IMG/VR virus record: IMGVR_UViG_3300001687_000010
Direction: 5' to 3' (one strand)
Origin: a virus
Taxonomy: Duplodnaviria; Heunggongvirae; Uroviricota; Caudoviricetes
Length of the DNA: 64,000 nucleotides
Shown here: piece by piece, positions 5,550 to 29,179 of the stretch
How positions within the stretch are numbered: the first letter of the stretch is position 1
Layout: every line of letters begins with the position of its first letter
Notes under the pieces: model-generated
Databases searched by the model: none
Seen by the model: only the letters and a program-made list of their open reading frames with translations
Told to the model about the DNA's origin: nothing
Made by a program: the position numbers and the translations under genes

Positions 5550-5837
5550 ATGAAATATGAAAATTTTTTAAACGAAATGGGAGCATCATTACAAAAATTA
5601 GCTTTTATCACAGTTAAGGAAATATTGGCTATGGGTTTAAAAAAAGCTGATATTTCAATCTTACAAAAAGATAAAAAACTCCGGGTAAAAATGCCTGATA
5701 GACCGGCCGGTCCCACTCAAACATCTCAAAAAGGATTGGAGTTTGTCGTGGATGTTCTCGGAGAAAATAAAATTTTAATAAATAATAAAGAGAAGGATAT
5801 AAACGAGTTTATAAACGAGGTACTCGGACCAAAATAA
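5550..5837 (+). CDS. small protein with N-terminal leader MKYENFLNE (CTS-like family)
   Basis: N-terminus matches the family consensus M-x-x-x-x-[YF]-L-x-E. Confidence 0.45.
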   Translation: MKYENFLNEMGASLQKLAFITVKEILAMGLKKADISILQKDKKLRVKMPDRPAGPTQTSQKGLEFVVDVLGENKILINNKEKDINEFINEVLGPK

Positions 5838-5847
5838 GGAGCAAAAA

Positions 5848-6162
5848 ATGAGCGCATTAGATAATATTGAATTTTATCTGGCATCGGAAGAAGCCATAAA
5901 TGGTGTAATGTCATTAATTAAGGAGGAGATTCAAATATCCTCTGCGGTAATGAAAAAGACGCTTTTCCGGTTTAATAGCTTTGTGGAAAAGGCCGCTGAT
6001 ATGACCAAACTCCATAATATGATTAACCTTAGAACCAAAAAAATGAATAAAGTTGATAAACTTTTGGCTTGGTTCAGGGTACTGGAGAATGAAAACTTCC
6101 ATGATGAGGCCGCATATGCAGCGATGAGACTCAGAGAACTGGGTTATAGCGGACCTTATTAA
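5848..6162 (+). CDS. hypothetical protein
   Basis: 104-aa ORF with an AGGAG RBS. Confidence 0.4.
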   Translation: MSALDNIEFYLASEEAINGVMSLIKEEIQISSAVMKKTLFRFNSFVEKAADMTKLHNMINLRTKKMNKVDKLLAWFRVLENENFHDEAAYAAMRLRELGYSGPY

Positions 6163-6173
6163 GGGGTAAAATA

Positions 6174-6485
6174 ATGAGATTTAAAGAATATTTGATAAAT
6201 GAAAAACTAAAAAAACCATCTAACCTTAGTGGGGCAAGTGACGAAGAGTTAATGTCTTATGCCGGGGATTTTGAAAACACTAAATGGAATCCAGATAATA
6301 AAGCCGAAGTAATGAGAATAGCTAAAGCTATAAACAAAGAAATTAAAAAAAGAGGGTTCCGTGGTAATGAAATTAAACCGATATTTGAAGCCAAAGGAGA
6401 AACTTGCCCAGTATGTGGTAAAAAGAACGCAAGCGGAAAGCATATTGATAAATGCTTAAAAAAATCAGGGGAGTATGACTGGTAA
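6174..6485 (+). CDS. leader-family protein (MRFKEYLINE) with C-terminal CxxC...C zinc knuckle
   Basis: N-terminal decapeptide motif. CPVCGK...KC motif near the C-terminus. Confidence 0.5.
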   Translation: MRFKEYLINEKLKKPSNLSGASDEELMSYAGDFENTKWNPDNKAEVMRIAKAINKEIKKRGFRGNEIKPIFEAKGETCPVCGKKNASGKHIDKCLKKSGEYDW

Positions 6486-6724
6486 TGAAATTTAGAGATT
6501 ATTTAAACGAGGGAAAGAATTCCATAATTGCTAAAGGCAAAGGAAAAGGCCAGCCAAGATGGGAATATTATGATAGCAGAGGAGTAAAACATTTTGGATG
6601 GGTAGAAAAAACATCAGACAGAGGGGGAACTGATGTTACCTATTTTTTCAGAGATGAAAATACTGACGAGCTTTCCGTTGTCTCAGGAAGTATTTTGAAA
6701 AAAGCAAATAGGATATGGAAATAA
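6485..6724 (+). CDS. leader-family protein (MKFRDYLNE)
   Basis: N-terminal motif. Stop/start overlap with the upstream gene. Confidence 0.5.
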   Translation: MKFRDYLNEGKNSIIAKGKGKGQPRWEYYDSRGVKHFGWVEKTSDRGGTDVTYFFRDENTDELSVVSGSILKKANRIWK

Positions 6725-6961
6725 ATGTCGATAGCAATAGCCACTATGGGAAAATATGTCCGGTATACTTTACAAACCGGCTCACGTGAAGGCGGCGGAA
6801 CTTATGGTTATCCCGTATGGGAACCTTTTAGAAAAAGCAAGCCACAGGTGGTAGTGCGTTCAGTTAGCGTAGATGATAAATTAAGGAGACAAAAACCGAG
6901 GGTAAAAATCGAGACCATTGAAAACGGTAATGGCGAGATTAATTTACAATCATTTAATTAA
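6725..6961 (+). CDS. hypothetical protein
   Basis: 78-aa ORF. Confidence 0.4.
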   Translation: MSIAIATMGKYVRYTLQTGSREGGGTYGYPVWEPFRKSKPQVVVRSVSVDDKLRRQKPRVKIETIENGNGEINLQSFN

Positions 6962-6969
6962 GGTGAGAT

Positions 6970-7236
6970 ATGGATACATATAAAAAATATCTAAACGAAA
7001 GCAAATTGATTAGAAGCCCAAAAGATGATTTTGAAAAACGGCTTTCAGCTTTAGATTCAGAAGTAGAAGATTTTGTTATGTTTCTATTTAATCAAACAAA
7101 AAAACCAAAGAAAACAGAAGCAGATGCTTATAAAGTCCTTTATCAAACATATGCCCAAAAGATGAAGGATTTTCAAAGAGTATTAGTAGAAATCCTAAAA
7201 TATAAAGATAAGGAACAGCAAAGATTTGGTTTTTAA
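6970..7236 (+). CDS. leader-family protein (MDTYKKYLNE)
   Basis: N-terminus is nearly identical to the ORF at 7767 and strikingly similar to the T4 internal-protein capsid targeting sequence MKTYQEFIAE, as I recall it. Confidence 0.5.
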   Translation: MDTYKKYLNESKLIRSPKDDFEKRLSALDSEVEDFVMFLFNQTKKPKKTEADAYKVLYQTYAQKMKDFQRVLVEILKYKDKEQQRFGF

Positions 7237-7248
7237 AGGTGAGAAACT

Positions 7249-7767
7249 ATGATTAGAATAAATACCGCAGAACGAAAGAAACTCAAGTTTGGTGTAGCGG
7301 TAAGTGGAGTCCAGACGAGAGACTTAAACGGCGTACTTAGACTTACATACGAGGGAGTTGAATACGGGTTCAAAACCGAAGTCCTTGACGATAAATTAGC
7401 GGTTGAGATTCCGCCGTTGGATAGTATAATAGCATATGAATTACCCGAAGGTGCTAAACTTACCGGCCGTCTTGAAGTTGTGGCTGAAGATACTTATATA
7501 GTACCGTGGACGGATAACTTTTCCGTTATTAGACCTATTAAAGTCGAGGCAACAATTACCGAAGATGAGGATATACCGGAGAAAGAAATTAGCGTTAAGG
7601 CTACGGTAACTGAAGAAGAGGACGTTAAGGACGTTAAGGAAGGTCTAAAAGGCGCAATAGCTCGAACTGTAGTTAAAGCGGCCGGTACTCATATAGCCAA
7701 GAAGGTCGTGGATAAAAAGAAAAAGAAAAACGAATCTAAATTTAGTAAAGCATTAAGAGGGGAATAA
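7249..7767 (+). CDS. hypothetical protein
   Basis: 172-aa ORF with a GGTGAG RBS. Confidence 0.45.
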   Translation: MIRINTAERKKLKFGVAVSGVQTRDLNGVLRLTYEGVEYGFKTEVLDDKLAVEIPPLDSIIAYELPEGAKLTGRLEVVAEDTYIVPWTDNFSVIRPIKVEATITEDEDIPEKEISVKATVTEEEDVKDVKEGLKGAIARTVVKAAGTHIAKKVVDKKKKKNESKFSKALRGE

Positions 7768-8024
7768 TGGATACTTATAAAAAATACCTAAATGAAGCCG
7801 CTTTATCAGGCAAAACAGTATCAAAAGAAATTGAAAGAGAATTTGAAAGACTTCAAGATGAAATAGATGATTTTATGATGCATACGGAAATGGTTACAAG
7901 AGAATCTGGACCAGATATTGAAAAAATAATGATAGGGCCTTGGAATGCTTTAGATAAAGCCTATGATAATTTTGTATCCAGAGCTAAAAACTTTATAAAA
8001 GCCGCTCATAAACATACTAATTAA
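7767..8024 (+). CDS. leader-family protein (MDTYKKYLNE), paralog of 6970
   Basis: Its first 10 aa are identical to the ORF at 6970. Confidence 0.5.
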   Translation: MDTYKKYLNEAALSGKTVSKEIEREFERLQDEIDDFMMHTEMVTRESGPDIEKIMIGPWNALDKAYDNFVSRAKNFIKAAHKHTN

Positions 8025-9108: not shown

Positions 9109-9158
9109 TTATTCCGTTATTATATAACACTTTTTATCAATTGTAAATAAAATTTAGG

Positions 9159-9611
9159 CTATTTTTGGTTTTGTAATTCTTCTATACGGGCATTTAATTC
9201 TGCAATTTTTGAATTTAACAAGCGTTCTGCGTTTGCAAATCCTTCACTTATGCCGTCCCCTTTGCCTTCGTGCAAGCCTTCTTCATAACCCTTTTCATAA
9301 CCCTGACGCTCACCTTCTTCATAACCTTCACTCCAACCGTCTTCCATACCGGATTCCCGGCCATCTGAAAAACCATCATCATATGCCCCATCATCATCTA
9401 ATTGAAAACCGTCACTTCGGGCTTCCTTATAGCCTTCGGTTTGACCGGCCTCAAAAGCGGCATCCCAAATTGCGTCTATATACATTCCCATTTTTTCTTC
9501 ATCGCTTCTGATTGACCGAGAATAAGCGATATAAACGTCATTTGCGGTTTCACGATTTACAATTGTTTCTAATGCATCTGTAAAAACTGCCATAACACTT
9601 CTCCTATCCAA
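9159..9611 (-). CDS. acidic repeat protein (EGYE/EG repeats)
   Basis: 150-aa ORF. Its start overlaps the 3' end of the polymerase gene. Confidence 0.4.
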   Translation of the reverse strand: MDRRSVMAVFTDALETIVNRETANDVYIAYSRSIRSDEEKMGMYIDAIWDAAFEAGQTEGYKEARSDGFQLDDDGAYDDGFSDGRESGMEDGWSEGYEEGERQGYEKGYEEGLHEGKGDGISEGFANAERLLNSKIAELNARIEELQNQK

Positions 9612-15334: not shown

Positions 15335-16792
15335 TTGGTAACGATTAAGGTTTATAACTCCTTAAATCTAAAAGTTGATACCGATGACGCAGATTATATG
15401 GATTTAATGCGTCAGGAATTTACCCGCCGAGTACCGAATTTCCAGTTTACGGCCGCTTATAAATCCGGCCATTGGTCGGGTTCGGTCTGCTTAATTGATA
15501 GGTGGAAAAATACCTTTCCTTACGGGTTATTAATGGATTATGTACGGGAGCATAAACGCAGTTTTCCCCGTATGCCGATTAAAGTGGAACCAGCGGTTAA
15601 GGAAATATTCCGGGGACCGGAATTCGAGATTATATACGACCTACCAACCCATAAAGTTAGACCATATCAAGACGATTGCATTCGTGCCTGCATAAAATAT
15701 ACCAAAGGTATTATTCGTTGTGCGACTGCATCCGGTAAATCGCTTGTTATCGCTTACGTTATCCGCAATCTATTAAGGGCAGATATTATACAAAAGAGTA
15801 TAATAATTGTACCCAGTACAGGCTTAATAACACAGTTTTATCAAGACCTCGTGGATTATGGCTTTGATAGTAAAAAAATTGGTACGGCATTCGCCAGACG
15901 CAAGCAATGGGATAAACAAATCGTTATATCTACATGGCAGACCCTTGCTAAAAATCCCGAAAAATTAAACGAATTTGACTGTATTTTCTGTGATGAGACT
16001 CACGGGGCTAAAGCCCATGAGCTAAAAAAACTATTGGAAAACGCCACTAAAGCGAAATATAGATTAGGTTTTACGGGTACGCTACACGCAGGAACTCTGG
16101 ATAATTGGAATACAAAATCCTATTTAGGGCCGGTAATACGGGAATATCCGGCCGGTCTATTAGCAGATGAGGGATGGATTAGTAAAGCAACAATCCATAT
16201 GCTTAATATAGAGTATCATCAAGATACTTGGGATGGGGAATACCATGATATTAGGGACGCTATATTCCAGAATCCATACCGTTTAGACCTGATTAAGGAA
16301 TTAACCGAATATTTAGACCATAATGTCCTAATATTGGTCGATAAGGTGGAAAAAGAAGGCGAGCTGTTAGAAGGGCTTCTGGGTACCGGCAAAAAGGAAG
16401 TGGTGTTTCTATCTGGCCGAGATGATGTTAAAGTGCGGGAGGAGTGGAGAAAGGCCGCAATGAGGCGCAAAGATATAGCCCTGATAGCCACATATGGCAT
16501 ATTTCAGCAAGGAATTAACATCCCTAACCTAAAGTATATAATCTTGGCGGCACCGTTTAAGGCTAAAATAAGGGTACTTCAGTCGATTGGAAGGGCATTA
16601 CGGATTCACTCGGACAAGAAAGACGGGGCGCAGATTTTTGATATCCATGACCATACTAAATTTTTTGAAAAGTACGGGGATATCCGTCTGCGCTATTATG
16701 ACCAAGAGAAGTTTGATATTAAGGAACACGTCTTTTATGAGGGTGAGTCTTTTGATTTTAAAAAGGTTTATTCTATTTCTTCATCGATTTGA
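15335..16792 (+). CDS. uvsW: UvsW-like SF2 DNA/RNA helicase
   Basis: Walker A ATASGKSLV, IIIVPSTGL, VISTWQTL, DExH-like CDETHG, TGTL, and a C-terminal ATYGIFQQGINIPNLKYIILA...LQSIGRALRIH. Near-colinear with T4 UvsW from memory. Confidence 0.8.
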   Translation: MVTIKVYNSLNLKVDTDDADYMDLMRQEFTRRVPNFQFTAAYKSGHWSGSVCLIDRWKNTFPYGLLMDYVREHKRSFPRMPIKVEPAVKEIFRGPEFEIIYDLPTHKVRPYQDDCIRACIKYTKGIIRCATASGKSLVIAYVIRNLLRADIIQKSIIIVPSTGLITQFYQDLVDYGFDSKKIGTAFARRKQWDKQIVISTWQTLAKNPEKLNEFDCIFCDETHGAKAHELKKLLENATKAKYRLGFTGTLHAGTLDNWNTKSYLGPVIREYPAGLLADEGWISKATIHMLNIEYHQDTWDGEYHDIRDAIFQNPYRLDLIKELTEYLDHNVLILVDKVEKEGELLEGLLGTGKKEVVFLSGRDDVKVREEWRKAAMRRKDIALIATYGIFQQGINIPNLKYIILAAPFKAKIRVLQSIGRALRIHSDKKDGAQIFDIHDHTKFFEKYGDIRLRYYDQEKFDIKEHVFYEGESFDFKKVYSISSSI

Positions 16793-16946
16793 TACTAATA
16801 ATTCTTTCCCCGGATTTTAATTGTTCTTCGGCTTCAACTTCAGCATGAGATTCACTGGATGCCATAACCGTGATTTTTCGTTTATTTGTTTTAATGACCC
16901 ATATATCAGGGAACATTCCTTCACATAAATAATCTTTGAATCTCAT
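16773..16946 (-). CDS. leader-family small protein (MRFKDYLCE), starting at the internal Met of the longer ORF
   Basis: N-terminal motif MRFKDYLCE. Confidence 0.45.
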   Translation of the reverse strand: MRFKDYLCEGMFPDIWVIKTNKRKITVMASSESHAEVEAEEQLKSGERIISIKSMKK

Positions 16947-17161
16947 CCTACCCATTTTCCTTTTGGTTTTTGTACCGGAGTATTAATTATTTTTTCAATC
17001 CGAGCAACTACGCTTTGAGTATTACTGGCTAAAGCATCAATCGCAGTTCTATTATCCGTTGTTCTTTTTGCTGTGGCCGCTGTGCGTTGCTCGACTGCCT
17101 TTAAACGGTCTATAATTTTTTTTAAGAGTTGTAAAGTGCGTTGGTCTTGTTCTTCGTTCAT
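16943..17161 (-). CDS. small coiled-coil protein
   Basis: 72-aa ORF. Confidence 0.35.
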   Translation of the reverse strand: MNEEQDQRTLQLLKKIIDRLKAVEQRTAATAKRTTDNRTAIDALASNTQSVVARIEKIINTPVQKPKGKWVG

Positions 17162-17670
17162 TTAACCGTCCCAAGAACTTTATTTAAAACTTTTTTATAT
17201 ATAGGAACTACATTGATTGTATGCATTTTTAAAGCCTTTTTAATTGCTTTTAAAATTATAGGTGTTACATAAATCGAACGCCTTTTTAATAAATCCATAA
17301 ATTCTATATGATGACCGAGTTCCTTGTCCTCAAGTTCACCGAGTGCGCCCCAGAAAGCCATTACTTCATCTTCCGGTAATTTAATTTGACCAAGTATTGT
17401 TCTTGGATTCTGTGACCCCTCGATAACCAATACAACTTCATTCTTTTTATTTAAGTGCTTATATTTTTTGCCTTGGTCATCCAAAGCATCCACTAAATTC
17501 ATAATAACCTCATCGGCTTCAGCCGGTACAGTTATTTTATTATTAGCGGCCTTAACTGTATATCCGCCTATTTTAATTGTATCATACGGATTTTGAACGA
17601 GATTTAGAAGTGCTCTTTTTTCTCGGCTTGTTAGCCTTTCCTCGTTTAGTAAGTACTCTCTCAGCTTCAT
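17158..17670 (-). CDS. leader-family protein (MKLREYLLNE)
   Basis: Start moved to an internal ATG preceded by a GAGGAGAG SD. N-terminal motif present. Confidence 0.5.
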   Translation of the reverse strand: MKLREYLLNEERLTSREKRALLNLVQNPYDTIKIGGYTVKAANNKITVPAEADEVIMNLVDALDDQGKKYKHLNKKNEVVLVIEGSQNPRTILGQIKLPEDEVMAFWGALGELEDKELGHHIEFMDLLKRRSIYVTPIILKAIKKALKMHTINVVPIYKKVLNKVLGTVK

Positions 17671-18088
17671 TGTTATTTCTCTCCTCATAATCCGCAACCC
17701 ACCATATGTTTTCTAAAATTCGGATTATGTTATGAATCTCCTCTTCAATTTCATTTTCATTTATATACCGTTGTCTCGCTAAAGAGTTTATACGGCTTAA
17801 AAACAGTTCAGTGGCTTCGTGAAAAGCCACTTTTCGTATTTCAAAATCATTAGGTGGAATTCCTGACCATGTTTTGCTTAATGTTACAAGGGCTAAACGG
17901 GCTTCTTTATCGGTGCTAACCGAAGCTCTTGCGTCCTCAACATCCCCATGTATGTAATGAAACTCCCATCCTTTAACGCCATAATGGTGAATCCAATTAA
18001 TAAATTCTTCTCTAAAAACATCAAACCATTTTTCACTTACATCATATTCAGTCTTCAGTATCTCGTCAATGGTTTTTTCTTCTTCCAC
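17582..18088 (-). CDS. hypothetical protein with basic C-terminal tail
   Basis: 168-aa ORF. Overlaps the downstream gene by 89 nt. Confidence 0.35.
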   Translation of the reverse strand: MEEEKTIDEILKTEYDVSEKWFDVFREEFINWIHHYGVKGWEFHYIHGDVEDARASVSTDKEARLALVTLSKTWSGIPPNDFEIRKVAFHEATELFLSRINSLARQRYINENEIEEEIHNIIRILENIWWVADYEERNNNEAERVLTKRGKANKPRKKSTSKSRSKSV

Positions 18089-18162
18089 AAGCAGTTGTCT
18101 CCTTACTATTATTTATTTATATCTGGTAAAAATAAATATAAATAGATTATGATAATTATAAG

Positions 18163-18600
18163 TTGGACAACTATATGAGTAAAGACGTATTTTTATGGAG
18201 AATGGCACGGCATGACCAAGGAACTGAAGGTTTTTTATTTACCGCAGGTTTTGATTGTCGGTCTTTAGAATTGCCGTGGAGAGATAATCAACGAAGTATA
18301 TCTTGTATCCCTCCCGGCTCTTATAATGTCGAAATTCGACTCTCACCGAAATATGGTCGTATATATTGGGTACGAAATGTACCAAATCGTAGCTATATTC
18401 TGATACATTCTGGCAATTTTGCAGGCGACACGAAAAAAGGCTTTAAAACTCACGTAAATGGTTGCATTTTGCTTGGACGTAAAATGGGCTATTTAAGTGA
18501 CCAACGTGCGGTGTTAAATTCCAGAATTACGGTCAGAGCTTTTATGGAACATATGGCCGATGAACCGTTTATGTTTCATATTATGGAGGCTTTTGGATAA
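18163..18600 (+). CDS. YkuD / L,D-transpeptidase-like catalytic-domain protein (tentative)
   Basis: The motif ILIHSGNFAG...KTHVNGCILLG resembles the LDT catalytic H..S/T-H-x-x-GC motif. Confidence 0.4.
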   Translation: MDNYMSKDVFLWRMARHDQGTEGFLFTAGFDCRSLELPWRDNQRSISCIPPGSYNVEIRLSPKYGRIYWVRNVPNRSYILIHSGNFAGDTKKGFKTHVNGCILLGRKMGYLSDQRAVLNSRITVRAFMEHMADEPFMFHIMEAFG

Positions 18601-20716: not shown

Positions 20717-21343
20717 ATGATATTAGAGACAATTCTCGGTGGCGTAACGGGTTTAATCGGCAATGTCGTGGGTGGAATTTTTAAATATAAGACCGCTAAA
20801 CTCCAAGCAGAGCACGATGAGAAAATGATTAAACTGGAAACAGAAGCAATGGTTATGGAGGCTAAAGCCAATATTGCCATTACACGAGCCACAGTAGAAG
20901 GAGAAATTGAAATAGCCGATAGTAAGGCTTATATGCACAGTCAGATTGCCGGGAATCAAAAATTATTCGGGCAAAAATGGATTGATATGCTATTGGGAAT
21001 CGAGGGTAAATGGAAAATTATTACGGTTCCAGTAGCCGTATTAGTATCATTTTTATTCGGATTCGTAGATTTTTTACGGGGAATAATGCGACCTGCGCTT
21101 ACCGCATATTTAATGGGTATGGCAACATATATAACTATATGGGCATATCATATAATGCAGGGTGCAGGAATAACCGTATCCACTGACCAAGCAGTTAAAA
21201 TATTTGAAGATACGACTTCGATTATTGTATACTTAACTGTTTCATGTGTAACGTGGTGGTTTGGTGACCGCAGAATGGCTAAAACGATTATGCAGATTAA
21301 AGGTGCGGATAGAACAAAAATCGATGACGATATAACGATATAA
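20717..21343 (+). CDS. multi-pass membrane protein, holin candidate
   Basis: N-terminal TM ILETILGGVTGLIGNVVGGIF, an amphipathic linker, then 3 further hydrophobic segments. Confidence 0.4.
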   Translation: MILETILGGVTGLIGNVVGGIFKYKTAKLQAEHDEKMIKLETEAMVMEAKANIAITRATVEGEIEIADSKAYMHSQIAGNQKLFGQKWIDMLLGIEGKWKIITVPVAVLVSFLFGFVDFLRGIMRPALTAYLMGMATYITIWAYHIMQGAGITVSTDQAVKIFEDTTSIIVYLTVSCVTWWFGDRRMAKTIMQIKGADRTKIDDDITI

Positions 21344-21353: not shown

Positions 21354-21836
21354 ATGAGTTCGTTAATTGATAGAATAAACCAGATTATAAACGAGGTTGG
21401 TAGCCTTGATAATTGGATGGATAGAAAAAGAGAAATGGATGAAAGACCCGTCCAGATGTATAAATCCTTAAACGATGCCGCCATATATTTTCCAGAATTA
21501 AAAAAAGGCAGAACTGAGATTTGGTATAAAAAAGGCGAATATCAAATTATGGCTGATTGGGGATTGGGTTATAAATGGTTATTAAAAAATGACCTGCTCC
21601 CACGAAGCACTAAAGATATCCAAAACACCCATATACCACTTGGTAGCGTTCAGGGAACTAATTTAGAAAGAATATTCTATATAATGCAGGGCGAAAACTG
21701 GAGTCCAAATGGCGAGGCCAGAAACCTAATACGCAAAAAAGGTTTAAAACATACCAGTATGAGCGTGGGTGATATCGTTAAAGTCGGCAACAGTTGGAAT
21801 TTAGTGGACGGAGTCGGATTTAAGAAAATTCTATAA
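21354..21836 (+). CDS. hypothetical protein
   Basis: 160-aa ORF with a GGAGA RBS. Confidence 0.4.
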   Translation: MSSLIDRINQIINEVGSLDNWMDRKREMDERPVQMYKSLNDAAIYFPELKKGRTEIWYKKGEYQIMADWGLGYKWLLKNDLLPRSTKDIQNTHIPLGSVQGTNLERIFYIMQGENWSPNGEARNLIRKKGLKHTSMSVGDIVKVGNSWNLVDGVGFKKIL

Positions 21837-21859: not shown

Positions 21860-22375
21860 ATGAGGTTAAATAGTTACTTAAAAGAGGATAAAAAGGTAGT
21901 CGGGCTTTTGGGTAAAAAACTGGAGAAACTTAAAAAAGAGCACGGATTTATTTCTAAATCCATGTTAACCAAACAAGAGCTTGAGCAACTTAAAAAATCA
22001 GGCGGAAAGGTTCAGGAAATGGTATCAGGCCCCGGAGCACTTGATGGTAAAAGTAAACAGGCGGCTAAAAACGCTATCCTTAAAGCAACTCAAAAGTTTA
22101 CCCATAATAAACTTTATAAAGACCAATATTGGCAAGGGCCAAATGGTGTTTTTAAAGAGTTTGATAATATGAACCTTAATTGGCAACTCGATAAAAACGA
22201 ATATCGTAAAGACCGGGATTCCGGTAAAACCACAAGCAAAGTATGGGATTTTACGATATGGTTTGATGATAATAAAGGCAAACAACAAAAGATAGGCGGA
22301 CAGGTTATTGCTTCCGGTGCCGGTAGTGTAAAAGACCCCTTAGACCGATATGATTTAGTGGTAACGGTTTGGTAA
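21860..22375 (+). CDS. leader-family protein (MRLNSYLKE)
   Basis: N-terminal motif. Confidence 0.5.
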   Translation: MRLNSYLKEDKKVVGLLGKKLEKLKKEHGFISKSMLTKQELEQLKKSGGKVQEMVSGPGALDGKSKQAAKNAILKATQKFTHNKLYKDQYWQGPNGVFKEFDNMNLNWQLDKNEYRKDRDSGKTTSKVWDFTIWFDDNKGKQQKIGGQVIASGAGSVKDPLDRYDLVVTVW

Positions 22376-22384: not shown

Positions 22385-22672
22385 ATGCGATTAAAAAATT
22401 ATTTATTGGAAGTCAAAGACTGGCAGAAAAAAAATAAACGATTTGAACTTGAGGTTAAGTATAGTAGTGATGCCGATAAAATTCCAATTTTATTTAGAGA
22501 TGCGGGACTTAAAATTGGGGATGATTGGGATTGGTTAACCTCAAATATTATAGGGATAGGCAAAAAGGCATTTGATGAGGTAGAGGATTGGCTAATGTTC
22601 GGTAAAAAGAACAAAGATGGTTCATGGCCGATAATGAGTGTAGGGACAATCCCACCTAATAAGAGAAAGTAA
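22385..22672 (+). CDS. leader-family protein (MRLKNYLLE)
   Basis: N-terminal motif. Confidence 0.5.
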   Translation: MRLKNYLLEVKDWQKKNKRFELEVKYSSDADKIPILFRDAGLKIGDDWDWLTSNIIGIGKKAFDEVEDWLMFGKKNKDGSWPIMSVGTIPPNKRK

Positions 22673-24009
22673 TGCGATTTAAACGATATCTTGCGGAGGC
22701 AAGGGAAATGTTTAAAGAGTGGCAAAAATATGTGCGTGATAATAAAGAACTTACCGCCGCTGTCGGTGTCCTTGATAAAATAAATAAGTCTGGATACAAG
22801 GCTTATATAGTGGGCGGAACGGTACGGGATATTATTCTCGGAAACCTTAAACCCCATGATATAGATATAGCAACAAATGCGCCTATGGATGAACTTGGGC
22901 GTATGTTTAAAACCTTTGATATTGGCAAGTCTCGTGACTTCGGTATCGTGGTTGTAAGGTACGGCTCATTTTCCTTTGAAGTAGCGCAATTTAGGCAAGA
23001 TGGAAAATATAAAGATGGACGCAGACCAGAAGCGGTTACAATTTCAGGCAGTTTTGAGCAGGATGCGGCAAGACGAGATTTTACAATTAATGCAATGGGC
23101 ATTAACGCCAGCGGAGAAATTATTGATTATTTTGATGGACGAAAAGATATCCAAAACAAAGTGCTTAAAACCGTTGGCGACCCTCGAGAGAGATTCGGTG
23201 AGGATTATCTCCGAATGCTCCGAGCACCAAGATTTGCTTCAAAACTGGCGGCATCACAAAGCGGTGATAAGTTTGCGGATTATATTGTCCAGTTGGATAA
23301 ACTTAAACTTTTAAAATATATTCTGCCGGAAGTCGGAAACCTAAAATGGTTTAGGGAAAACTTAAAACATCATCCCGAAACAAAGGGGGAAGGTGGAACA
23401 GTATATAGTCACGTATTAGCTGCCCTGAGAAAGAGCGATACTGCCGACCCTATAAAGAATTTGGCTATATTATTACATGATGTCGGCAAGGGTGTGACGT
23501 TTGCTCAAAAAGAAGGGCTTCCTACTTATTTTGAACACGCTAAAATGGGCATCGAGCTTGTGCGCCATATTGCTAACCGACTTAGAATGAGCAATAAAGA
23601 TAAGGACGCTTTATTATTCGCAGTCGGCAACCATATGAAGTTTCATAATATCCTAAAAATGAGGCCATCTAAAGTTGCTAAACTTGTAAACGATGACCAC
23701 TGGGATGTTCTAATAGCGGTAGCCAGAGCAGACGAATTTGCACGTGGCGAAACCTTTATGTATAAAGGTGAATTTGAAAAAATAGTTGATAAGGCCATCA
23801 AAATTAAAGAAAAATTTGGTATGCCTGTCGTTAACAAACAGTTAAAACTCGTGGACGGTAAACACGTTATGAATCTTACCAGCCTTAAACCGGGGCCAAA
23901 AATTGGTGAGGTTATTCGTAAAGCAACAGAGTGGATTATGGATAACGATATTACCGACCAAGGAAAAATAGATAATTATATTAAAAAAATTGCGGGAGAA
24001 GCAAAATGA
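22672..24009 (+). CDS. tRNA nucleotidyltransferase (CCA-adding enzyme) with HD domain, carrying the N-terminal leader MRFKRYLAE
   Basis: GGTVRD, DIDIAT, RRDFTINA and RMLRAPRFA head-domain motifs. HDVGKG HD motif present. Confidence 0.85.
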   Translation: MRFKRYLAEAREMFKEWQKYVRDNKELTAAVGVLDKINKSGYKAYIVGGTVRDIILGNLKPHDIDIATNAPMDELGRMFKTFDIGKSRDFGIVVVRYGSFSFEVAQFRQDGKYKDGRRPEAVTISGSFEQDAARRDFTINAMGINASGEIIDYFDGRKDIQNKVLKTVGDPRERFGEDYLRMLRAPRFASKLAASQSGDKFADYIVQLDKLKLLKYILPEVGNLKWFRENLKHHPETKGEGGTVYSHVLAALRKSDTADPIKNLAILLHDVGKGVTFAQKEGLPTYFEHAKMGIELVRHIANRLRMSNKDKDALLFAVGNHMKFHNILKMRPSKVAKLVNDDHWDVLIAVARADEFARGETFMYKGEFEKIVDKAIKIKEKFGMPVVNKQLKLVDGKHVMNLTSLKPGPKIGEVIRKATEWIMDNDITDQGKIDNYIKKIAGEAK

Positions 24010-24302
24010 CTAAATGGAATAAATTAGATGAATATGCCAGTGAGATTGAGGCATATGAAAACGTATTAAATGAAAAATGGAATAAAGAAGAAATTTCGGA
24101 AGGTTTAAAGTGGAAAAAATTATCACCTAACGAATACGAAGCAGTTGGTAAAAAGGTAATTTTTTATGCTATGAAAAAAGGCGGAATATATAGCCTGCTT
24201 GTTTTAGATAAAAAAGGCAAAGGCGATGATGACCCTATTGACTGGTTAGATGCTGATAGCATAGAAGATGCCAAAGCTCAAGCTGAAAAATATAAGGAGT
24301 AA
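24006..24302 (+). CDS. hypothetical protein
   Basis: 98-aa ORF. Confidence 0.4.
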   Translation: MTKWNKLDEYASEIEAYENVLNEKWNKEEISEGLKWKKLSPNEYEAVGKKVIFYAMKKGGIYSLLVLDKKGKGDDDPIDWLDADSIEDAKAQAEKYKE

Positions 24303-24305
24303 ATA

Positions 24306-24971
24306 ATGCGATTTAAAAATTTTCTAAACGAAAAAAAATTTGCTATTGAAGTCTCTGTAAGGGACGCAAGGCGAGCATTAGCTTTGTTAAAAGATGAACG
24401 CATTCCATATAAACCAGATGGGTCTAATTATTATATTTTTAAAACTATGGATGCCCTTTTAAATGCGGAAGATGCTTTTAAACGGGGCAAAATTGAAGTC
24501 CTTGGTATTACAGAATCGGCAGAATCGGTAGAGATTGCTTATACTGATTTGCGTAAAAACAAACGAATGCGCAAAAAGTTTAAAGACCAAAAAGCCCTTG
24601 AAAAATGGCTCGATAAAATGGAAGGCAATATTATTGTTGACGCTTATCTAAATGAAGCCAAAACTATAAAATCCCGTAATGGCATATGGGGTTTTTATAA
24701 CGAGGCACATAGACGGCTCGGTAACGAAAAACTGGCAAAAGAGGCTTTCAGCAAAGCCGCTAATGCACTTATGATGGCAATGAAAGTTAAAGATACAGTA
24801 GCAAGGGATTTTCTTGATTCAAGAGGTGGGCGGCATTTGGCAGATTCTTTAACTGATGCCAATTTAGCAAATCCGAATGTTGTAAATATGATAAAACATC
24901 CGTGGCTTAAAGCAGAGTTTAAGCGTTTTATGAAAGATTACGACCCGGCAGAGTTTACGGCAAGTTTATAA
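24306..24971 (+). CDS. leader-family protein (MRFKNFLNE)
   Basis: N-terminal motif. 221 aa. Confidence 0.5.
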   Translation: MRFKNFLNEKKFAIEVSVRDARRALALLKDERIPYKPDGSNYYIFKTMDALLNAEDAFKRGKIEVLGITESAESVEIAYTDLRKNKRMRKKFKDQKALEKWLDKMEGNIIVDAYLNEAKTIKSRNGIWGFYNEAHRRLGNEKLAKEAFSKAANALMMAMKVKDTVARDFLDSRGGRHLADSLTDANLANPNVVNMIKHPWLKAEFKRFMKDYDPAEFTASL

Positions 24972-24972
24972 A

Positions 24973-25281
24973 ATGAGATTTAAACGCTATTTACAAGAAT
25001 CTAAAATGACCGATGTGGAAGCATTATCAATCTTCGGCTTAACGCCGGATGATTTAGGGAATAGTGCGCTTATAAAAAAGCGTTATCGGGATTTGGTTAA
25101 GACATATCACCCCGATAAAATCGGCAAAAATGATATGATGGTAAAAGTAAATTTAGCTTATGAGATAATTAAAAAACTTAAACCGAGTAAGATATCGGAC
25201 AAGGATGTGGAAAATCTAATGGCTGATTTATATCCCATCTTTAAAAAACCTAAACATAAATTTAAGGGAGTATACGCATGA
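24973..25281 (+). CDS. J-domain (DnaJ-like) protein with leader MRFKRYLQE
   Basis: KRYRDLVKTYHPDK...VNLAYEII matches the J-domain helix II / HPD / helix III pattern. Confidence 0.65.
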   Translation: MRFKRYLQESKMTDVEALSIFGLTPDDLGNSALIKKRYRDLVKTYHPDKIGKNDMMVKVNLAYEIIKKLKPSKISDKDVENLMADLYPIFKKPKHKFKGVYA

Positions 25282-25481
25282 GTAAATTTGAAAAATATAT
25301 TACAGAAGGTTCCATGTCATGGAGAGGGGAAAAAGCTAAAGCCACTATGGAAATTGCTTATGGAGAACCAGCCGTGAGGATTAAATCCAAAGGAATGGAT
25401 ATTAGAATATTGTTACCAAAAGAGGCGATAAATTTCCCAACAAAATTTGATACAGTAGTAGATGTAAGCGTTCAGGTATAA
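25278..25481 (+). CDS. leader-family small protein (MSKFEKYITE)
   Basis: Variant of the N-terminal motif. Confidence 0.45.
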   Translation: MSKFEKYITEGSMSWRGEKAKATMEIAYGEPAVRIKSKGMDIRILLPKEAINFPTKFDTVVDVSVQV

Positions 25482-25483
25482 TT

Positions 25484-25597
25484 ATGAGATTTAAAAATTA
25501 TCTAACCGAATCCATGAGCAGATATTGCCATATTTATAAAGCCAAAAACCGTAAATGGTATGTTGATTTGGCCGATACCGGGTGGTTATTCAACTGA
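25484..25597 (+). CDS. short leader-family ORF (MRFKNYLTE...), probably frameshifted
   Basis: 37 codons, then a stop. The +1 frame stays open for another about 35 codons, to roughly 25700. Confidence 0.3.
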   Translation: MRFKNYLTESMSRYCHIYKAKNRKWYVDLADTGWLFN

Positions 25598-25700
25598 TAA
25601 ATCAGGAAAACACCCGACACCTAAAAGGTCGCCTAATGGTTCCCCTATTAGAGAACCAAGTGCTAATAGAAGACCTTCATATAGTTATTAAGGAGTAATT

Positions 25701-25964
25701 ATGAGATTTAAAGAATATATAACTGAGGCTGATAATAAACATTGGATTACCAGTATTACAAGTGCAACTCATGAGTATATGTTTTTAGGTGGTGGATATA
25801 AAGGCAAGCCTGAAAATGATGAGGCGAGAAAAAAAGCCATTCAAATTAGAAAAAAATATCCAGAATTGAAAAGCGGGACGATTAAACAATTCAAATTTAG
25901 GGAAAATGAAATAAGGGGCAAACTTGATAAATTAAGAGAATTGCCTGAAGGAGCAAAAAGATAA
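25701..25964 (+). CDS. leader-family protein (MRFKEYITE)
   Basis: N-terminal motif. Confidence 0.5.
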   Translation: MRFKEYITEADNKHWITSITSATHEYMFLGGGYKGKPENDEARKKAIQIRKKYPELKSGTIKQFKFRENEIRGKLDKLRELPEGAKR

Positions 25965-26485
25965 TGAGGTTTACAAGGTTTCTTAAAGAAAGTGTAATAG
26001 ACGATGCTCTAAAAGTTGATGAGCCGTCTGTCCGCAGAAAATATAGCGAAGAGGGTGTAAAGAAAAAATTAGACCTTATTCAAAAAGCTATTAAAGAATT
26101 GCGTAATAACGATAAATACGATGATGATGCTAAAGACGCTATTATGGCGGATTTAGAAGATAAACAAGATAAATGGAGTAACGTGGACTCTGAAACAAAA
26201 CCACCTAAACCAGTTGCACCACCTCCTGAAGGTGAAGCGGAACCGAAAACTGATGCGGAAGTTGCGGCCGCAGAAAAAGAAGATGAAATAGCACAAAAAG
26301 AAGAAGATAAGGCTAAACAAAAAGAGGATGAAAAGGCCGCAAAAGAAGAGGAGTTGGCGAAAAAGAAAGAGGATAAGGCCAAAAAAGAAGAAGAGAAAAA
26401 GAAGAAAAACATGGAACGTGCGGAAATGGCCGCAAAAAAGAAAAACGAGGAGCGACTAATTAAGTCTAAAATCTCTTTAAAATGA
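25964..26485 (+). CDS. leader-family protein (MRFTRFLKE) with highly charged K/E/D-rich C-terminal half
   Basis: N-terminal motif. Low-complexity KEED repeats. Confidence 0.5.
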   Translation: MRFTRFLKESVIDDALKVDEPSVRRKYSEEGVKKKLDLIQKAIKELRNNDKYDDDAKDAIMADLEDKQDKWSNVDSETKPPKPVAPPPEGEAEPKTDAEVAAAEKEDEIAQKEEDKAKQKEDEKAAKEEELAKKKEDKAKKEEEKKKKNMERAEMAAKKKNEERLIKSKISLK

Positions 26486-27906
26486 AATATGAAAAGTATT
26501 TAACCCCTAAAGAAGAGGGTACTTTATACGAAGAATATATAACACATTTACTAAGCGAGGCTAAAGGTAAGCTTCGCTTTGTTGTAATAACAGATGAACC
26601 GGAAACCGATTCAGAATTATTTTATACTGCTCGCCGGATTTTAGATGAATCCGGCAAAAAGGGATATGGCGCATATGCTGTAATGGTTGACGGTGCTTAT
26701 ATTAAAGTTGAAGATGGTGTACGCACTATCCATAATGCGGATGATAAAAAAGGTTTTAAAATACAAAATGAAGATACTGTTTGTATAATCCGTGGCTCGA
26801 TTACCCGTAAAGACAGTTGGCTTGATTTAGTAACACAAATGGAAAAGGCCAATATTTGTTGCGTAAACAGTCGAGAATGTATAGAAGTATGTGCTGATAA
26901 ATATAGAACCTATCTCCGGTTGAATGAATATGGTTTAAACCAACCTAAAACCGTTTTAATCCCCAATAAAGGTTATCTTGAGCAGGCTGTCGAGAATTTA
27001 GATATTAAAAAATTCCCAATGATTTTAAAAACATTGAGGGGTTCTAAAGGCATCGGTGTTGTGTTTATTGAATCCGAAAGGTCATTGGACGCCATTGTTC
27101 AGTTAGCATATAAAAGCGATGAATGGGCAGAATTGCTCTTACAGGAGTATATTGAAACCGATAAGGATATTAGAGTACTGGTTTTAGGTGGTAAAGTTTT
27201 AGCATCCATGCAAAGAGAGGTTATTCCCGGTGATTTTAGGTCTAATTTTTCACGTGGGGGCAAAGTTAAAAAGTTTAAGTTAACCTCTTATGAGATAGAG
27301 CAATGTATTTTAGCCGCTAAAGCGGTAAATGGCGTATATGTTGCCGTTGATTTTATACCGGGGAAAAATAGGGATAAAGACCAACCGTTTATTCTTGAAG
27401 TAAACTCATCACCGGGGTCAGAAGGCATAGAAAAGGCCACTGGTGAAAATGTAATAGGTGATATGCTAATGTACTTCGAAGACCCCAAGAATCGCTATTC
27501 AGTGCCTTCTGAGGTAGGTTATAAAGAGATTGTAACCATAGAACCCTTCGGTCAGGTGATTGCTAAATTTGATACGGGCAATTCGGGTGAAAATGTTATC
27601 CATGCCGAAAATATGAAGATTAAGGGCAAAAAGGTAACATGGACGCTAAATGATAAAACGATTACAAGCGATATAATAGATAAAATAAAAATTAAAGTGG
27701 GTGGACTTCGTGATTACCCAGAGGAAAGAGTTTTAATCCATTTAGATGTGGAATTTTTAGGAACCATATATAAGGATGTACCGTTTACTCTGGATGATAG
27801 AGAGCACAGGTCACCAGTGCTTTTAGAACGCCAGTTTATGAGCAGATTAAATGTAATGGTTAACCCACGAAGACGTTATATCGTAACAACAAAATATAGT
27901 TTATAA
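26482..27906 (+). CDS. ATP-grasp enzyme (RimK/glutathione-synthetase-like) with leader-like N-terminus MKYEKYL
   Basis: ATP-grasp signatures are present: GSKGIGVVFIE, EYIETDKDIRVLVLGGKV and DFIPG...ILEVNSSPG. A 130-aa C-terminal extension follows. Confidence 0.7.
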   Translation: MKYEKYLTPKEEGTLYEEYITHLLSEAKGKLRFVVITDEPETDSELFYTARRILDESGKKGYGAYAVMVDGAYIKVEDGVRTIHNADDKKGFKIQNEDTVCIIRGSITRKDSWLDLVTQMEKANICCVNSRECIEVCADKYRTYLRLNEYGLNQPKTVLIPNKGYLEQAVENLDIKKFPMILKTLRGSKGIGVVFIESERSLDAIVQLAYKSDEWAELLLQEYIETDKDIRVLVLGGKVLASMQREVIPGDFRSNFSRGGKVKKFKLTSYEIEQCILAAKAVNGVYVAVDFIPGKNRDKDQPFILEVNSSPGSEGIEKATGENVIGDMLMYFEDPKNRYSVPSEVGYKEIVTIEPFGQVIAKFDTGNSGENVIHAENMKIKGKKVTWTLNDKTITSDIIDKIKIKVGGLRDYPEERVLIHLDVEFLGTIYKDVPFTLDDREHRSPVLLERQFMSRLNVMVNPRRRYIVTTKYSL

Positions 27907-27915
27907 TGAGGTAAA

Positions 27916-28110
27916 ATGGAAAAATATCAAAAATATTTGAAAACTAATATAGATGAATCTTTTTTTTCAGACCCAAGAAATAAGAAAAAAGCACAAGGAT
28001 GGTTTGATTCTTTATGGAGAGAAGCGGATAGCGCAGATAGAAAAGGGCAAAAAGATTACGCAGATGGTATGAGAACTGTATTACACGCATTTAGGCAATC
28101 ATTTCTATGA
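27916..28110 (+). CDS. hypothetical small protein (MEKYQKYLKTN; weak leader-like)
   Basis: 64-aa ORF. Confidence 0.35.
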   Translation: MEKYQKYLKTNIDESFFSDPRNKKKAQGWFDSLWREADSADRKGQKDYADGMRTVLHAFRQSFL

Positions 28111-28484
28111 GATTAAAACGATACTTACAAGAAGCAATAACACTTGATATAGAAATAGGCGATACTGTTTTAGGCGGAAAGTTTAAAAACAAGCGTGTTG
28201 TCGTTAAAGAGATAGGCAAAAATGAGAAAGGGGACTGGACTATCAACGGCAAGCCTTTATTAAAATTCAGGATATTACCCAAAGAAGAAGTAACAGAAGC
28301 ATCAAAAACTTGTTGGAAATGTGGCGCAAAAGAACGCAAATGGGGACATAGAACAGTTGATGGAAAGGATTATTGTAATAAATGTTTTAAAAAACTCCCG
28401 AAAGAAAAACAAGAAGAATGGTTAAAAGCGCATAAACAAAAAGATAAAGACCTTGAAAAACGGATGATGGATTTATTAAAATGA
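28107..28484 (+). CDS. leader-family protein (MRLKRYLQE) with C-terminal zinc ribbon
   Basis: N-terminal motif. C-terminal motif CWKCG...CNKC. Confidence 0.5.
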   Translation: MRLKRYLQEAITLDIEIGDTVLGGKFKNKRVVVKEIGKNEKGDWTINGKPLLKFRILPKEEVTEASKTCWKCGAKERKWGHRTVDGKDYCNKCFKKLPKEKQEEWLKAHKQKDKDLEKRMMDLLK

Positions 28485-29179
28485 GACTACAGACTTACCT
28501 AATTGAATCCAGTTTCGTACTAACGATTAAAGACATAGAACAAGTCGCTATGAAAGCAGGCGGACGCTTCCGCAGTGAGGCTGAAAAAAACGCAGAGCAG
28601 TTTTTAGACTGGTGGTACGAGAAACCGGAACTAAAAAAGGATTTAGGTTATTTTTTTAAGGCCGCAACAAAGGCAGGGCAAATGGCGTTAAAGATGCTCG
28701 GCCCCGTACCTTACTATAACAGAAATGACCTTATTAACAATATTTTAGATACGCAAGAATTCCCAACCAATCCTAAAGATTTTTTTCCCATCCCCATATA
28801 CATATCTTCAGGCAAAAATGACCGCTTTACAGTGGGTATACTTATCCATGCTAACGGTAAAAAAGAGTTATTTGAGGGCAATGACGAGGCCACAAGCGAG
28901 ACTTATGACTTAGTGGACAAGATATTAGGTAACGTCAAGCCCGTAACCGTTTATGGTTATCACGGTGAAAAGACTGTAGAGGATATACGCAGAACAAATA
29001 CCTTACCGGAAGGGCTTTATATGTCTCCCGATAAAAAATATGCGTTAGGATACTGGTCATTGAAAGAAAATCGGATTCCCTTCTCCTGCGTGGCTATGAG
29101 TAACGCCTTTAGAAAGGAATCCGATAAAGATTGGAAAGTAAAAAAAGATACTAAAATTAAAAACTTTAAGTTTATATAA
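28481..29179 (+). CDS. leader-family protein (MRLQTYLIE)
   Basis: N-terminal motif. 232 aa. Confidence 0.5.
   Translation: MRLQTYLIESSFVLTIKDIEQVAMKAGGRFRSEAEKNAEQFLDWWYEKPELKKDLGYFFKAATKAGQMALKMLGPVPYYNRNDLINNILDTQEFPTNPKDFFPIPIYISSGKNDRFTVGILIHANGKKELFEGNDEATSETYDLVDKILGNVKPVTVYGYHGEKTVEDIRRTNTLPEGLYMSPDKKYALGYWSLKENRIPFSCVAMSNAFRKESDKDWKVKKDTKIKNFKFI

Follow-up and report, generated by a model that had tools for sequence, protein, structure and literature searches.

The 64,000-nucleotide (nt) stretch of viral DNA recorded as IMGVR_UViG_3300001687_000010 (hereafter the window, that is, the whole stretch that was analysed) encodes many proteins that open with nearly the same short peptide, here called the leader. 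Eighteen open reading frames (ORFs) of the window start with a peptide of the type M-[RK]-[FLY]-x-x-[YF]-[LI]-x-E and two further ORFs with degenerate versions of it, which brings the window total to 20. The leader family exists, and the peptide itself is under selection. We consider it probable (about 0.7) that the leader is a T4-type capsid targeting sequence (CTS), a propeptide cleavable by the prohead protease gp21. An earlier note on this DNA had proposed the same interpretation, and each check that could be computed came out in its favour. Sequence comparison places the phage as an uncultivated far-T4 myovirus: the DNA polymerase of the window shares about 29% identity with gp43 of T4-like myoviruses (pelagiphages and cyanophages), the closest major capsid protein (MCP) of a cultured phage is at most 35% identical, and 24 kb of the window gave no megablast match to cultured phages.

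The leader stands at ORF starts, and far more often than chance allows. A six-frame scan of the 64 kb with the pattern M[RK][FLY][KRTNQE]x[YF][LI]x(1-2)E returned 16 matches, 16 of 16 at ORF starts and all within 5550-29179, with no match internal to an ORF and none outside this interval. The two MDTYKKYLNE genes and the two degenerate ORFs (26482 and 27916) complete the window set of 20. All leader matches begin at the initiator Met, and each of the 20 start coordinates given in the earlier note is the first codon of an ORF with the peptide stated for it. In 200 dinucleotide-preserving shuffles, a strict leader pattern that is observed 15 times occurred 0.0 times (maximum 0), and a broad pattern that is observed 20 times occurred 2.7 ± 1.9 times. 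We also built a 91.4-kb composite from the window and public contigs that encode window proteins (overlaps with 0 and 5 mismatches); there, 17 true N-termini carry the core [FYW]xx[FYW][LIV]x(1-2)E, whereas the interior of real genes has it only about four times. No leader is present on any of about 75 genes at 29-73 kb, a region of replication genes, 29 tRNAs and numerous small ORFs.

Conservation follows the peptide. In the 15 nine-residue leaders, position 1 is M (15), position 2 is R (11) or K (4), position 3 is F (9), L (5) or Y (1), position 6 is Y (11) or F (4), position 7 is L (13) or I (2), and position 9 is invariably E (15). The leader Glu is residue 9 or 10 in 23 members and lies farther downstream in degenerate members; the residue that follows it is A, S or G in 16 of the 23. 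Different codons were said to encode the leader, and they do: Arg is written AGA, AGG, CGA or CGC and Leu TTA, TTG, CTA or CTT, while the nucleotide information follows the codon period: in conserved codons it is high at the first two positions and drops at the third (1.91, 1.69 and 0.49 bits at the three positions of the Glu codon). The periodicity and the switching of codon families thus show that selection acts on the peptide, not on the DNA. Between 9- and 10-residue leaders the reading register moves by one residue and the peptide pattern is kept, and in the nucleotide information profile the Shine-Dalgarno sequence is the sole conserved element upstream of leader genes. The remainders of the proteins are unrelated, again as claimed: once the first 12 residues are cut off, BLASTP pairs no leader protein with another at E ≤ 0.01, and their Pfam families and folds differ.

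T4-type CTSs occupy the first 10-19 residues of their proteins. In T4, the first 10 residues of the internal protein IPIII are enough for packaging (PMC9026906). Mutagenesis of the T4 CTS has shown that residues 4 and 7 mainly set targeting and residues 8 and 10 set processing (Mullaney & Black 1996, as reviewed in PMC9026906), and gp21 cleaves after L/I-X-E (PMC9026906), the motif that the earlier note had given. The T4 determinants Y4, F7, I8 and E10 reduce to aromatic-x-x-aromatic-[IL]-x-E. When the leader residues are aligned, these four functionally mapped positions are, in sequence, the most constrained columns of the family, at equal spacing. The pair of F/L/Y and Y/F/W three apart falls at positions 4 and 7 in 10-residue leaders and at positions 3 and 6 in 9-residue leaders, [LI]-x-E is present in 15 of 15 nine-residue leaders, and the T4 numbering is kept exactly in the 10-residue members MDTYKKYLNE, MSKFEKYITE and MKTFEKYLNE. 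According to the T4 record, IPII and IPIII begin MKTYQEFIAE/A (here and below, a slash marks the cut after Glu, which is predicted in the leaders) and IPI begins MKTFKEFTSTTTPVSTITE/A (MKTFKEF...ITE/A); MKTYQEFIAE, which had been given for all three proteins, therefore holds for IPII and IPIII and not for IPI.

The leader resembles the CTS of IPI, IPII and IPIII in being N-terminal and 9-10 residues long (longer in degenerate members, as in IPI), in its aromatics three apart, its [IL]-x-E and, in most members, a small residue after Glu, and in being the sole element common to otherwise unrelated proteins of a phage with gp21, gp22 and gp23 homologs. It differs in that its commonest form, M-R-F-K-x-Y-L-x-E, is one residue shorter and has basic residues at 2 and 4, and in that at least 25 carriers here compare with three in T4, with cargoes that reach multi-domain enzymes of 474 amino acids (aa). 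BLASTP of IPI, IPII and IPIII against 26 leader proteins gave only matches at E > 0.05 except for IPII and the 7767 protein (23% identity over 79 aa, E = 0.003 in the 26-sequence database), which is not significant alone; by sequence, no cargo here appears convincingly similar to IPI, IPII or IPIII.

Across T-even phages, at least 10 Ip families are recognised by their signal sequence at the ip loci (PMC12373910), and Ip1-3 are injected inhibitors of GmrSD type IV restriction enzymes (PMC12373910, PMC3012670). The ip loci are similar to the system here in that diverse cargoes stand behind a conserved leader and are replaced at a fixed locus with the breakpoint at the leader end; they differ in number, with members here spread over at least six genomic sites compared with two loci, and nothing here points to GmrSD as a target. 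The giant phages phiKZ, 201phi2-1 and SPN3US carry long N-terminal propeptides on head and ejection proteins, which are cut after Glu by a gp21-related prohead protease and have been proposed to target the prohead (PMC5694885). Unlike the leader, these propeptides are mostly longer than 100 residues, have the motif A/S-x-E rather than L/I-x-E, and are without a 9-10-residue consensus.

The proteins that such a propeptide would need are encoded upstream of the window. Contig L013, which overlaps the window with 0 mismatches, carries portal, protease, scaffold and capsid genes, recognised in the composite by Pfam as PF07230 Portal_T4, PF03420 Peptidase_S77, PF25623 T4_CASP scaffold and PF07068 Gp23; the IMG/VR fragment L098, assigned to the same phage by MCP and PrkA that are 100% identical, adds the large terminase. 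The Peptidase_S77 protease (207 aa) is 40% identical to T4 gp21 by BLASTP (E = 1e-27) and has intact His and Ser motifs (GELxHP and SSRGLGS). The earlier note had named a T4-type prohead protease and a capsid protein as things to look for, and both were found, together with the gp22-type scaffold. It had also suggested a search of the phage for further leader genes, which yielded seven. Four lie within 10 kb beside the portal (MKFRDYIKE/G, MKLRNFLRE/E, MKFRDWLIDE/E and MSEKFRQYLTE/S), two directly after the terminase (MKTFEKYLNE/G and MRFKKYLNE/Q), and one between gp21 and gp22 (MNFEKYLTE/A). It is in the same interval, between gp21 and gp22, that T4 encodes its small core proteins. The family is thus not confined to two clusters as had been thought. 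With the probable leader variants MAETYQAFYINE/V (96 aa) and MRTDLIEKYLTPKKE (82 aa), the count over roughly 100 kb comes to 25 clear and about four degenerate members, at six or more genomic sites.

The major capsid protein provides an internal control. The known maturation site of T4 gp23 reads ...GSFLTE/AEIGG. In gp23 of the phage and of 20 relatives (57-97% identity), the propeptide, which is N-terminal and conserved, ends in [W/F/Y/H/S]-L-x-E/[A/T/G], for example WLQE/A, FLME/T or YLTE/A, with a hypervariable stretch directly after it. This end, an aromatic residue followed by L-x-E and a small residue, is the C-terminal half of the leader motif.

The leader genes also lie behind candidate late promoters. 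The T4-type late promoter octamer TATAAATA has 24 copies in the 91-kb composite compared with about 16.5 expected, and 13 of them stand 8-80 nt before a start codon. Copies precede the portal gene, the gp21 operon and gp22, and others head all three window blocks that hold leader genes: the octamer at 345..352 (+ strand), 45 nt upstream of gene 398, heads the block that runs into cluster 1 (5550-8024); that at 18137..18144 (+), 30 nt upstream of gene 18175, heads the 18.2-29.2 kb block with cluster 2; and that at 18114..18121 (-), 25 nt upstream of ORF 18088..17582, heads the block with leader genes 17670 and 16946. An ATAAATA repeat is found at the head of the portal-side block. Sigma-70-like sites were at background level, and the promoter and terminator scans were uninformative; no strong terminator breaks the 18.1-29.2 kb block in the terminator scan. 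Late expression of the leader genes is plausible on these grounds. The two octamers at window 18114-18144 lie back to back on opposite strands, 23 nt apart, between divergent blocks, and this region is a candidate bidirectional late promoter region.

Comparison with relatives shows how the leader behaves over shorter distances. The main comparison phage is contig 3300042731_004948, whose portal protein is 89% identical. Most leader genes have leader-bearing orthologs in this relative, and orthologs vary at unconstrained leader positions only. For example, the 22385 protein and its ortholog differ at 5 of 95 residues, all within the first 10 (MRLKNYLLEV and MRFKDYLSEA), and the constrained columns are kept. 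The CCA-adding enzymes of contigs L040 and L034 keep the leader, and in the family of the 28481 protein the leader is present in 17 of 20 homologs, down to about 40% identity, with E9 nearly invariant. The ortholog of 16773..16946 in L040 (5085-5456, - strand) is without a leader and is fused in frame to an upstream 72-aa ORF (window 16773-17161); at the junction, ...KGKWVG-LKE-GMFPD, the leader is replaced by a bare L-x-E, at which, judging by its sequence, the fusion protein could still be cleaved.

At one portal-side locus, the phage and its 89% relative share the leader but not the cargo that follows it, which is an unrelated protein in each (100 and 134 aa). Homology of their DNA, about 90%, covers the gene upstream and the leader itself, is lost right after the Glu codon and is back at the next gene. 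A breakpoint at the leader end is the pattern of the T-even ipI locus. The leader is therefore a portable module that is gained, lost, and kept across cargo swaps. The clusters had been described as hypervariable-looking cassettes; swaps behind a kept leader do occur, but cluster 2 is largely syntenic with the 89%-related phage. Among the portal-side leader genes, about 8 kb upstream of the window (L001 1309-1761, - strand), there is also a protein of 150 aa whose N-terminal endonuclease domain is like that of Tn7 TnsA; the related phage L008 has this protein as well.

Leader clusters are present in other uncultivated viruses too. We carried out a census of metagenomes by degenerate back-translation limited to AGR Arg codons, which undercounts leaders with CGN-Arg or Lys at position 2. 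In IMG/VR, 99 loci were matched, 47 of them with at least two leader ORFs at ORF starts and with up to ten in 14 kb. Dozens of uncultivated viral contigs, 4 to 360 kb in length, hold such clusters, with contigs of 343 and 360 kb among them, and contigs that encode a gp21 homolog along with leader genes were recovered independently. A recognisable T4-type core gene is present on only 8 of the 99 loci, the loci being short, so membership of the T4 superfamily cannot be claimed for all such contigs. Some metagenomic variants are similar to the T4 IPI leader MKTFKEF, among them MKTFKQFIEES and MITFKQFLDEA. Pfam assignments of 107 non-redundant cargoes of at least 140 aa include AAA_33 and Zeta-toxin-like P-loop kinases, DnaJ, cytidylyltransferase-like proteins, PolyA_pol, Amidoligase_2 and HD_4.

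Cultured phages carry the leader too. Erwinia phage Gravdalen (Winklervirus, Tevenvirinae) has MKFKEFLSE/G at an ipI-like locus beside a tRNA cluster, a peptide that is essentially the leader consensus here; its Met lies 21 codons downstream of the annotated start of CDS0139 (L161 3947-4510). In Vibrio phage pv27, MKFKQFLAES and MKFKEYLNEL adjoin the terminase, and Vibrio phage Va1 is a further cultured carrier of the leader. The most informative case is the Agrobacterium jumbo phage Atu_ph07, which was reached through a 295-aa metagenomic leader protein (MNFKQFLYE...) with five homologs in that phage (28% identity, E = 2e-10). Eleven consecutive Atu_ph07 genes, gp53-gp63, each start with M-[RK]-[WL]-x-Q-L-x-E; gp numbers were assigned through the coding-sequence anchors and molecular masses of the published description (Attai et al. 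2018, PMC6102473). All 11 products are in its virion table obtained by electrospray ionization tandem mass spectrometry, with 3-31 unique peptides and 12-46% coverage (PMC6102473 Table S5). The first 150 kb of the genome hold two more leader-like ORFs, gp43 (MRLIDLLES) and gp113 (MKTLQDYLTES), both also in the virion table; in total 13 of 13 leader-like proteins are detected, compared with a regional baseline of about 57 of 190. The ORF of gp113 (L159 34393-35148; record 84393-85148) extends 29 codons upstream to MKTLQDYLTES, with its own GAGGA Shine-Dalgarno sequence, and the annotated starts of gp113 and of Gravdalen CDS0139 are probably wrong.

Atu_ph07 encodes a gp21 homolog (gp204), and its CCA-adding enzyme (gp18) has no leader and is absent from the virion list. 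The gp53-63 array is comparable with the genes here as a tandem array, all of the M-[RK]-W-x-Q-L-[TN]-E type, virion-detected, in a phage with a gp21 homolog; it is unlike them in that its leader is one residue shorter and has no second aromatic, and in that its members are paralogs and not unrelated cargoes. By this analogy, incorporation of leader proteins into virions is supported indirectly. The main text of the Atu_ph07 paper has 0 occurrences of 'N-terminal' or 'paralog' (PMC6102473), so the motif is undiscussed there.

Most window cargoes have no PHROG or Pfam match, and many are ORFans. In cluster 1 (all + strand) the leader genes are 5550..5837 (MKYENFLNE/M, a 95-aa ORFan with no Pfam or PHROG match); 6174..6485 (MRFKEYLINE/K, 103 aa, with a Cys-rich zinc-ribbon-like C-terminal tail); 6485..6724 (MKFRDYLNE/G, 79 aa); 6970..7236 (MDTYKKYLNE/S, 88 aa), a 10-residue leader in the exact T4 register (Y4, Y7, L8, E10); and 7767..8024 (MDTYKKYLNE/A, 85 aa), whose weak BLASTP alignment to T4 IPII is full-length. 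The two MDTYKKYLNE proteins look like distant paralogs. The - strand carries 16773..16946 (MRFKDYLCE/G, 57 aa; its ortholog in the 89% relative is without a leader) and 17158..17670 (MKLREYLLNE/E, 170 aa).

Cluster 2, on the + strand, begins with 21860..22375 (MRLNSYLKE/D, 171 aa) and 22385..22672 (MRLKNYLLE/V, 95 aa, ortholog 94.7% identical), followed by 22672..24009 (MRFKRYLAE/A, 445 aa, CCA-adding enzyme with PolyA_pol head and HD domain), 24306..24971 (MRFKNFLNE/K, 221 aa, phrog_8020 of unknown function), 24973..25281 (MRFKRYLQE/S, 102 aa, J-domain or DnaJ) and 25278..25481 (MSKFEKYITE/G, 67 aa, 10-residue leader in T4 register). The ORF 25484..25597 (MRFKNYLTE/S), listed as a member by the earlier note, has a perfect leader but only 37 aa; the relative L040 does not have it, and it is probably what is left of a decayed member. 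The stretch 25484-25691 consists of this ORF with its leader MRFKNYLTES, then a 43-aa ORF in another frame; from its sequence it is probably a frameshifted or decaying leader gene, with no counterpart in the related phage. The remaining genes are 25701..25964 (MRFKEYITE/A, 87 aa); 25964..26485 (MRFTRFLKE/S, 173 aa, acidic/lysine-rich low-complexity tail); 26482..27906 (degenerate leader MKYEKYLTPKEE, 474 aa, RimK-type ATP-grasp enzyme with a C-terminal Zn_protease-like domain), which keeps the aromatic pair and has its next L-x-E sites farther downstream in an IPI-like layout; 27916..28110 (degenerate leader MEKYQKYLKTNIDE/S, 64 aa), which keeps Y4, Y7 and L8 and has its first [LI]-x-E (IDE) shifted to residues 12-14, as in T4 IPI; 28107..28484 (MRLKRYLQE/A, 125 aa, CxxC...CxxC zinc-ribbon-like); and 28481..29179 (MRLQTYLIE/S, 232 aa, C-terminal ADP-ribosyltransferase fold). 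Pfam thus bears out the CCA-adding enzyme, the J-domain protein and the ATP-grasp enzyme that had been named as cargoes, and two cargoes are zinc-ribbon-like.

Some of these cargoes are instructive. The leader of the CCA-adding enzyme is an N-terminal add-on: the catalytic domain begins at residue 44, whereas the Atu_ph07 enzyme, which has no leader, has it about 20 residues earlier. At window 40341-57405 (+ strand) there are 29 tRNA genes amid small ORFs, and 29 of 29 encode their own 3' CCA; a leader-tagged CCA enzyme would therefore serve repair and not maturation. The 28481 protein has the core fold of ADP-ribosyltransferases (ARTs) at its C-terminus, closest in fold to Tpt1, PARPs and the Rhs toxin TreTu, with a conserved catalytic triad of H161, Y180 and E213, and the conserved residues of its family suggest an H-Y-E type site. 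In its AlphaFold2 model, residues 1-9 are the only segment with a pLDDT (predicted local distance difference test score) below 50. T4 Alt is an ART of the R-S-E class, of which about 40 copies are packaged, processed by gp21 and injected. Both Alt and the 28481 protein are ART-fold enzymes with an N-terminal [LI]-x-E propeptide in a gp21-encoding phage; the 28481 protein differs from Alt in being small (232 aa) and probably of H-Y-E rather than R-S-E type. Mature cargoes more often have an isoelectric point above 8 than other proteins do (76% vs 46%, p = 0.014).

If the leader is a CTS, the following sequence of events can be proposed. The leader genes would be transcribed late. The two hydrophobic or aromatic residues of the leader, three apart, would bind the gp22-based scaffolding core during prohead assembly, by analogy with T4, and the gp21-type prohead protease would then cut after the Glu of [LI]-x-E and free the mature protein within the head. 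At the next infection these proteins, mostly basic in mature form, would be ejected with the DNA, and at least some would act at once on the host; candidates are the ART-fold protein, the CCA-adding (repair) enzyme, the ATP-grasp ligase and the J-domain protein. We infer packaging, cleavage and injection for the phage here, and to read the set as an anti-defence arsenal would go a step further.

Other explanations of the leader have to be weighed. It is unlikely, but worth considering, that the leader is a tag for assembly into another part of the virion (tail, baseplate or whisker) or a propeptide independent of gp21. Tail-fibre-like genes immediately precede cluster 1 within one late block, and the gp53-63 cluster of Atu_ph07, a phage with whisker-like appendages for which virion association only is shown, holds a tail-fibre-like protein. 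However, the constrained positions are those that set head targeting and gp21 processing in the T4 CTS, the capsid propeptide ends with the same motif, one member lies between gp21 and gp22, and the cargoes are enzymes (CCA-adding, ATP-grasp, ART fold, J-domain) rather than fibre-like proteins. The match to all four T4 CTS determinants, the gp23-propeptide motif, the head-module members and the detection of 13 of 13 Atu_ph07 proteins in virions would likewise be left unexplained if the leader were a cytoplasmic regulatory peptide, such as a degron, a chaperone or protease tag, or a zymogen-type inhibitory propeptide that times late accessory enzymes. We regard this as improbable, even though many cargoes are enzymes with plausible cytoplasmic roles, the leader is predicted to be disordered relative to the fold, and two orthologs manage without it.

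Still less can be said for a nucleic-acid signal, namely a translation enhancer, a RegA-like repressor site or a recombination sequence. The A+T-rich leader codons favour initiation, and the cassette-swap breakpoints coincide with the leader end, where the sequence may double as a recombination junction; yet the low information at third positions, the six-fold Arg and Leu residues that switch codon families, the register shift between leader lengths, the want of conserved upstream sequence and the absence of the leader from the genes at 29-73 kb make it very improbable. Equally hard to credit is a single paralogous family that has diverged everywhere except at the N-terminus: the genes are clustered, co-oriented and often small, and the MDTYKKYLNE pair looks paralogous, but the cargoes have unrelated folds (PolyA_pol+HD, DnaJ, RimK ATP-grasp, ART fold) and no similar mature pair, cellular and phage homologs of the cargo families are leaderless (e.g., Atu_ph07 gp18), and the leader is gained, lost and kept across cargo replacement. 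Both the RNA-signal and the single-family readings were rejected, the former on codon periodicity and the latter on the unrelated cargo folds.

Several observations weigh against the CTS interpretation. Two orthologs in the close relative are wholly without the leader, which is thus dispensable for those proteins. In a MAFFT alignment of gp23, WLQE/A of the phage does not fall opposite FLTE/A of T4, so the capsid cleavage site here is predicted, from its conservation in closer relatives, and not positionally homologous. The residue after Glu appears looser than in the T4 sites that can be read: among 164 non-redundant metagenomic leaders it is often K, E, Q or D besides S, G and A. Late timing is deduced from the promoter octamer only, with its 24 copies for about 16.5 expected. 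At least 25 protein species, including enzymes of 445 and 474 aa, would need to share the core. MCP identity to cultured phages reaches 35% at most, so the support drawn by analogy comes from the virions of no close relative. The Atu_ph07 leader differs, being without the second aromatic, and the particles were purified by polyethylene glycol only, which shows virion association and not a place inside the head (PMC6102473). Finally, the 107 metagenomic cargoes include no R-S-E (Alt-type) ART, Ocr-like or known anti-restriction domain.

The head module and the flanks of the clusters hold further features. A second N-terminal motif, M-x-(x)-[IL]-L/I-[DE]-R-I-[DN]-x-x-[IL]-[NS]-[EQ], is shared by three otherwise dissimilar proteins, MSSLIDRINQIINE (window 21354-21836, + strand), MDILERIDEKLSQ (L013 13925-14389) and MSILDRIDEHLNE (L001 3106-3642, - strand), one of which is located between gp21 and gp22; from its sequence, it may be a further propeptide class containing [LI]-x-E. 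Upstream of the window, a trio of PrkA (AAA_PrkA), DUF444 (YeaH-like) and a 539-aa ORF, which we take to be SpoVR-like, sits between the major capsid and large terminase genes (L013 17651-20303 and L098 1290-6538). Such an operon, associated with stress and sporulation in bacteria, is unusual as an insertion in a head module. The first gene behind the late promoter at 18137 encodes a DUF5675 protein (window 18163-18600, + strand) and is followed by several ORFans, and a 208-aa multi-pass membrane protein (20717-21343) lies upstream of cluster 2; by its gene content this stretch may be a lysis or late accessory block. Right after cluster 2, on the - strand (29323-31825), three genes in a row encode a Prok-JAB/MPN protein (330 aa, Cys-rich in its N-terminal segment), a ThiF/E1-like protein (208 aa) and an ORFan (300 aa); in sequence, they look like a module for ubiquitin-like conjugation and deconjugation.

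The CTS and the diversity of T-even Ip proteins are textbook knowledge. Three carriers of the CTS are known in T4 and at least 10 Ip families across its relatives (PMC12373910), and a 2022 review speculates that the CTS is a general loading route in T4-like phages (PMC9026906). In the literature searched, we found no earlier report of at least 25 carriers (about 15% of the genes examined) or of an enzyme-rich cargo, none of a near-identical leader in a far-T4 uncultivated lineage with variants in jumbo phages, and none that links the leader to the Atu_ph07 virion array. Most probably, the leader system is a known delivery system in a form that has been greatly enlarged and is rich in enzymes. 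More tentatively, it may reflect a portable capsid-delivery code across the T4 superfamily (T-evens, far-T4 and Rak2/Atu_ph07-like jumbo phages), used here for an injected kit of at least 25 proteins that includes an ART-fold protein, a CCA-repair enzyme, an ATP-grasp enzyme and a J-domain co-chaperone, a possibility that we would not put at even odds.

Injected proteins act ahead of any phage gene expression, which makes them prime candidates for counter-defence, and so far they have been found by virion proteomics, phage by phage. If the wider proposal is true, injected proteins would be predictable from genomes and metagenomes by sequence alone, and the leader would be a ready-made tag for engineered protein delivery in non-model phages. 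Apart from those of nucleus-forming phages, no predicted set of injected proteins would be larger than that of this phage, and the kit of its relatives would add P-loop kinases, nucleotidyltransferases and an alarmone-hydrolase-like protein. The cargo list suggests that these phages may deliver whole enzymes into their hosts, not small inhibitors alone.

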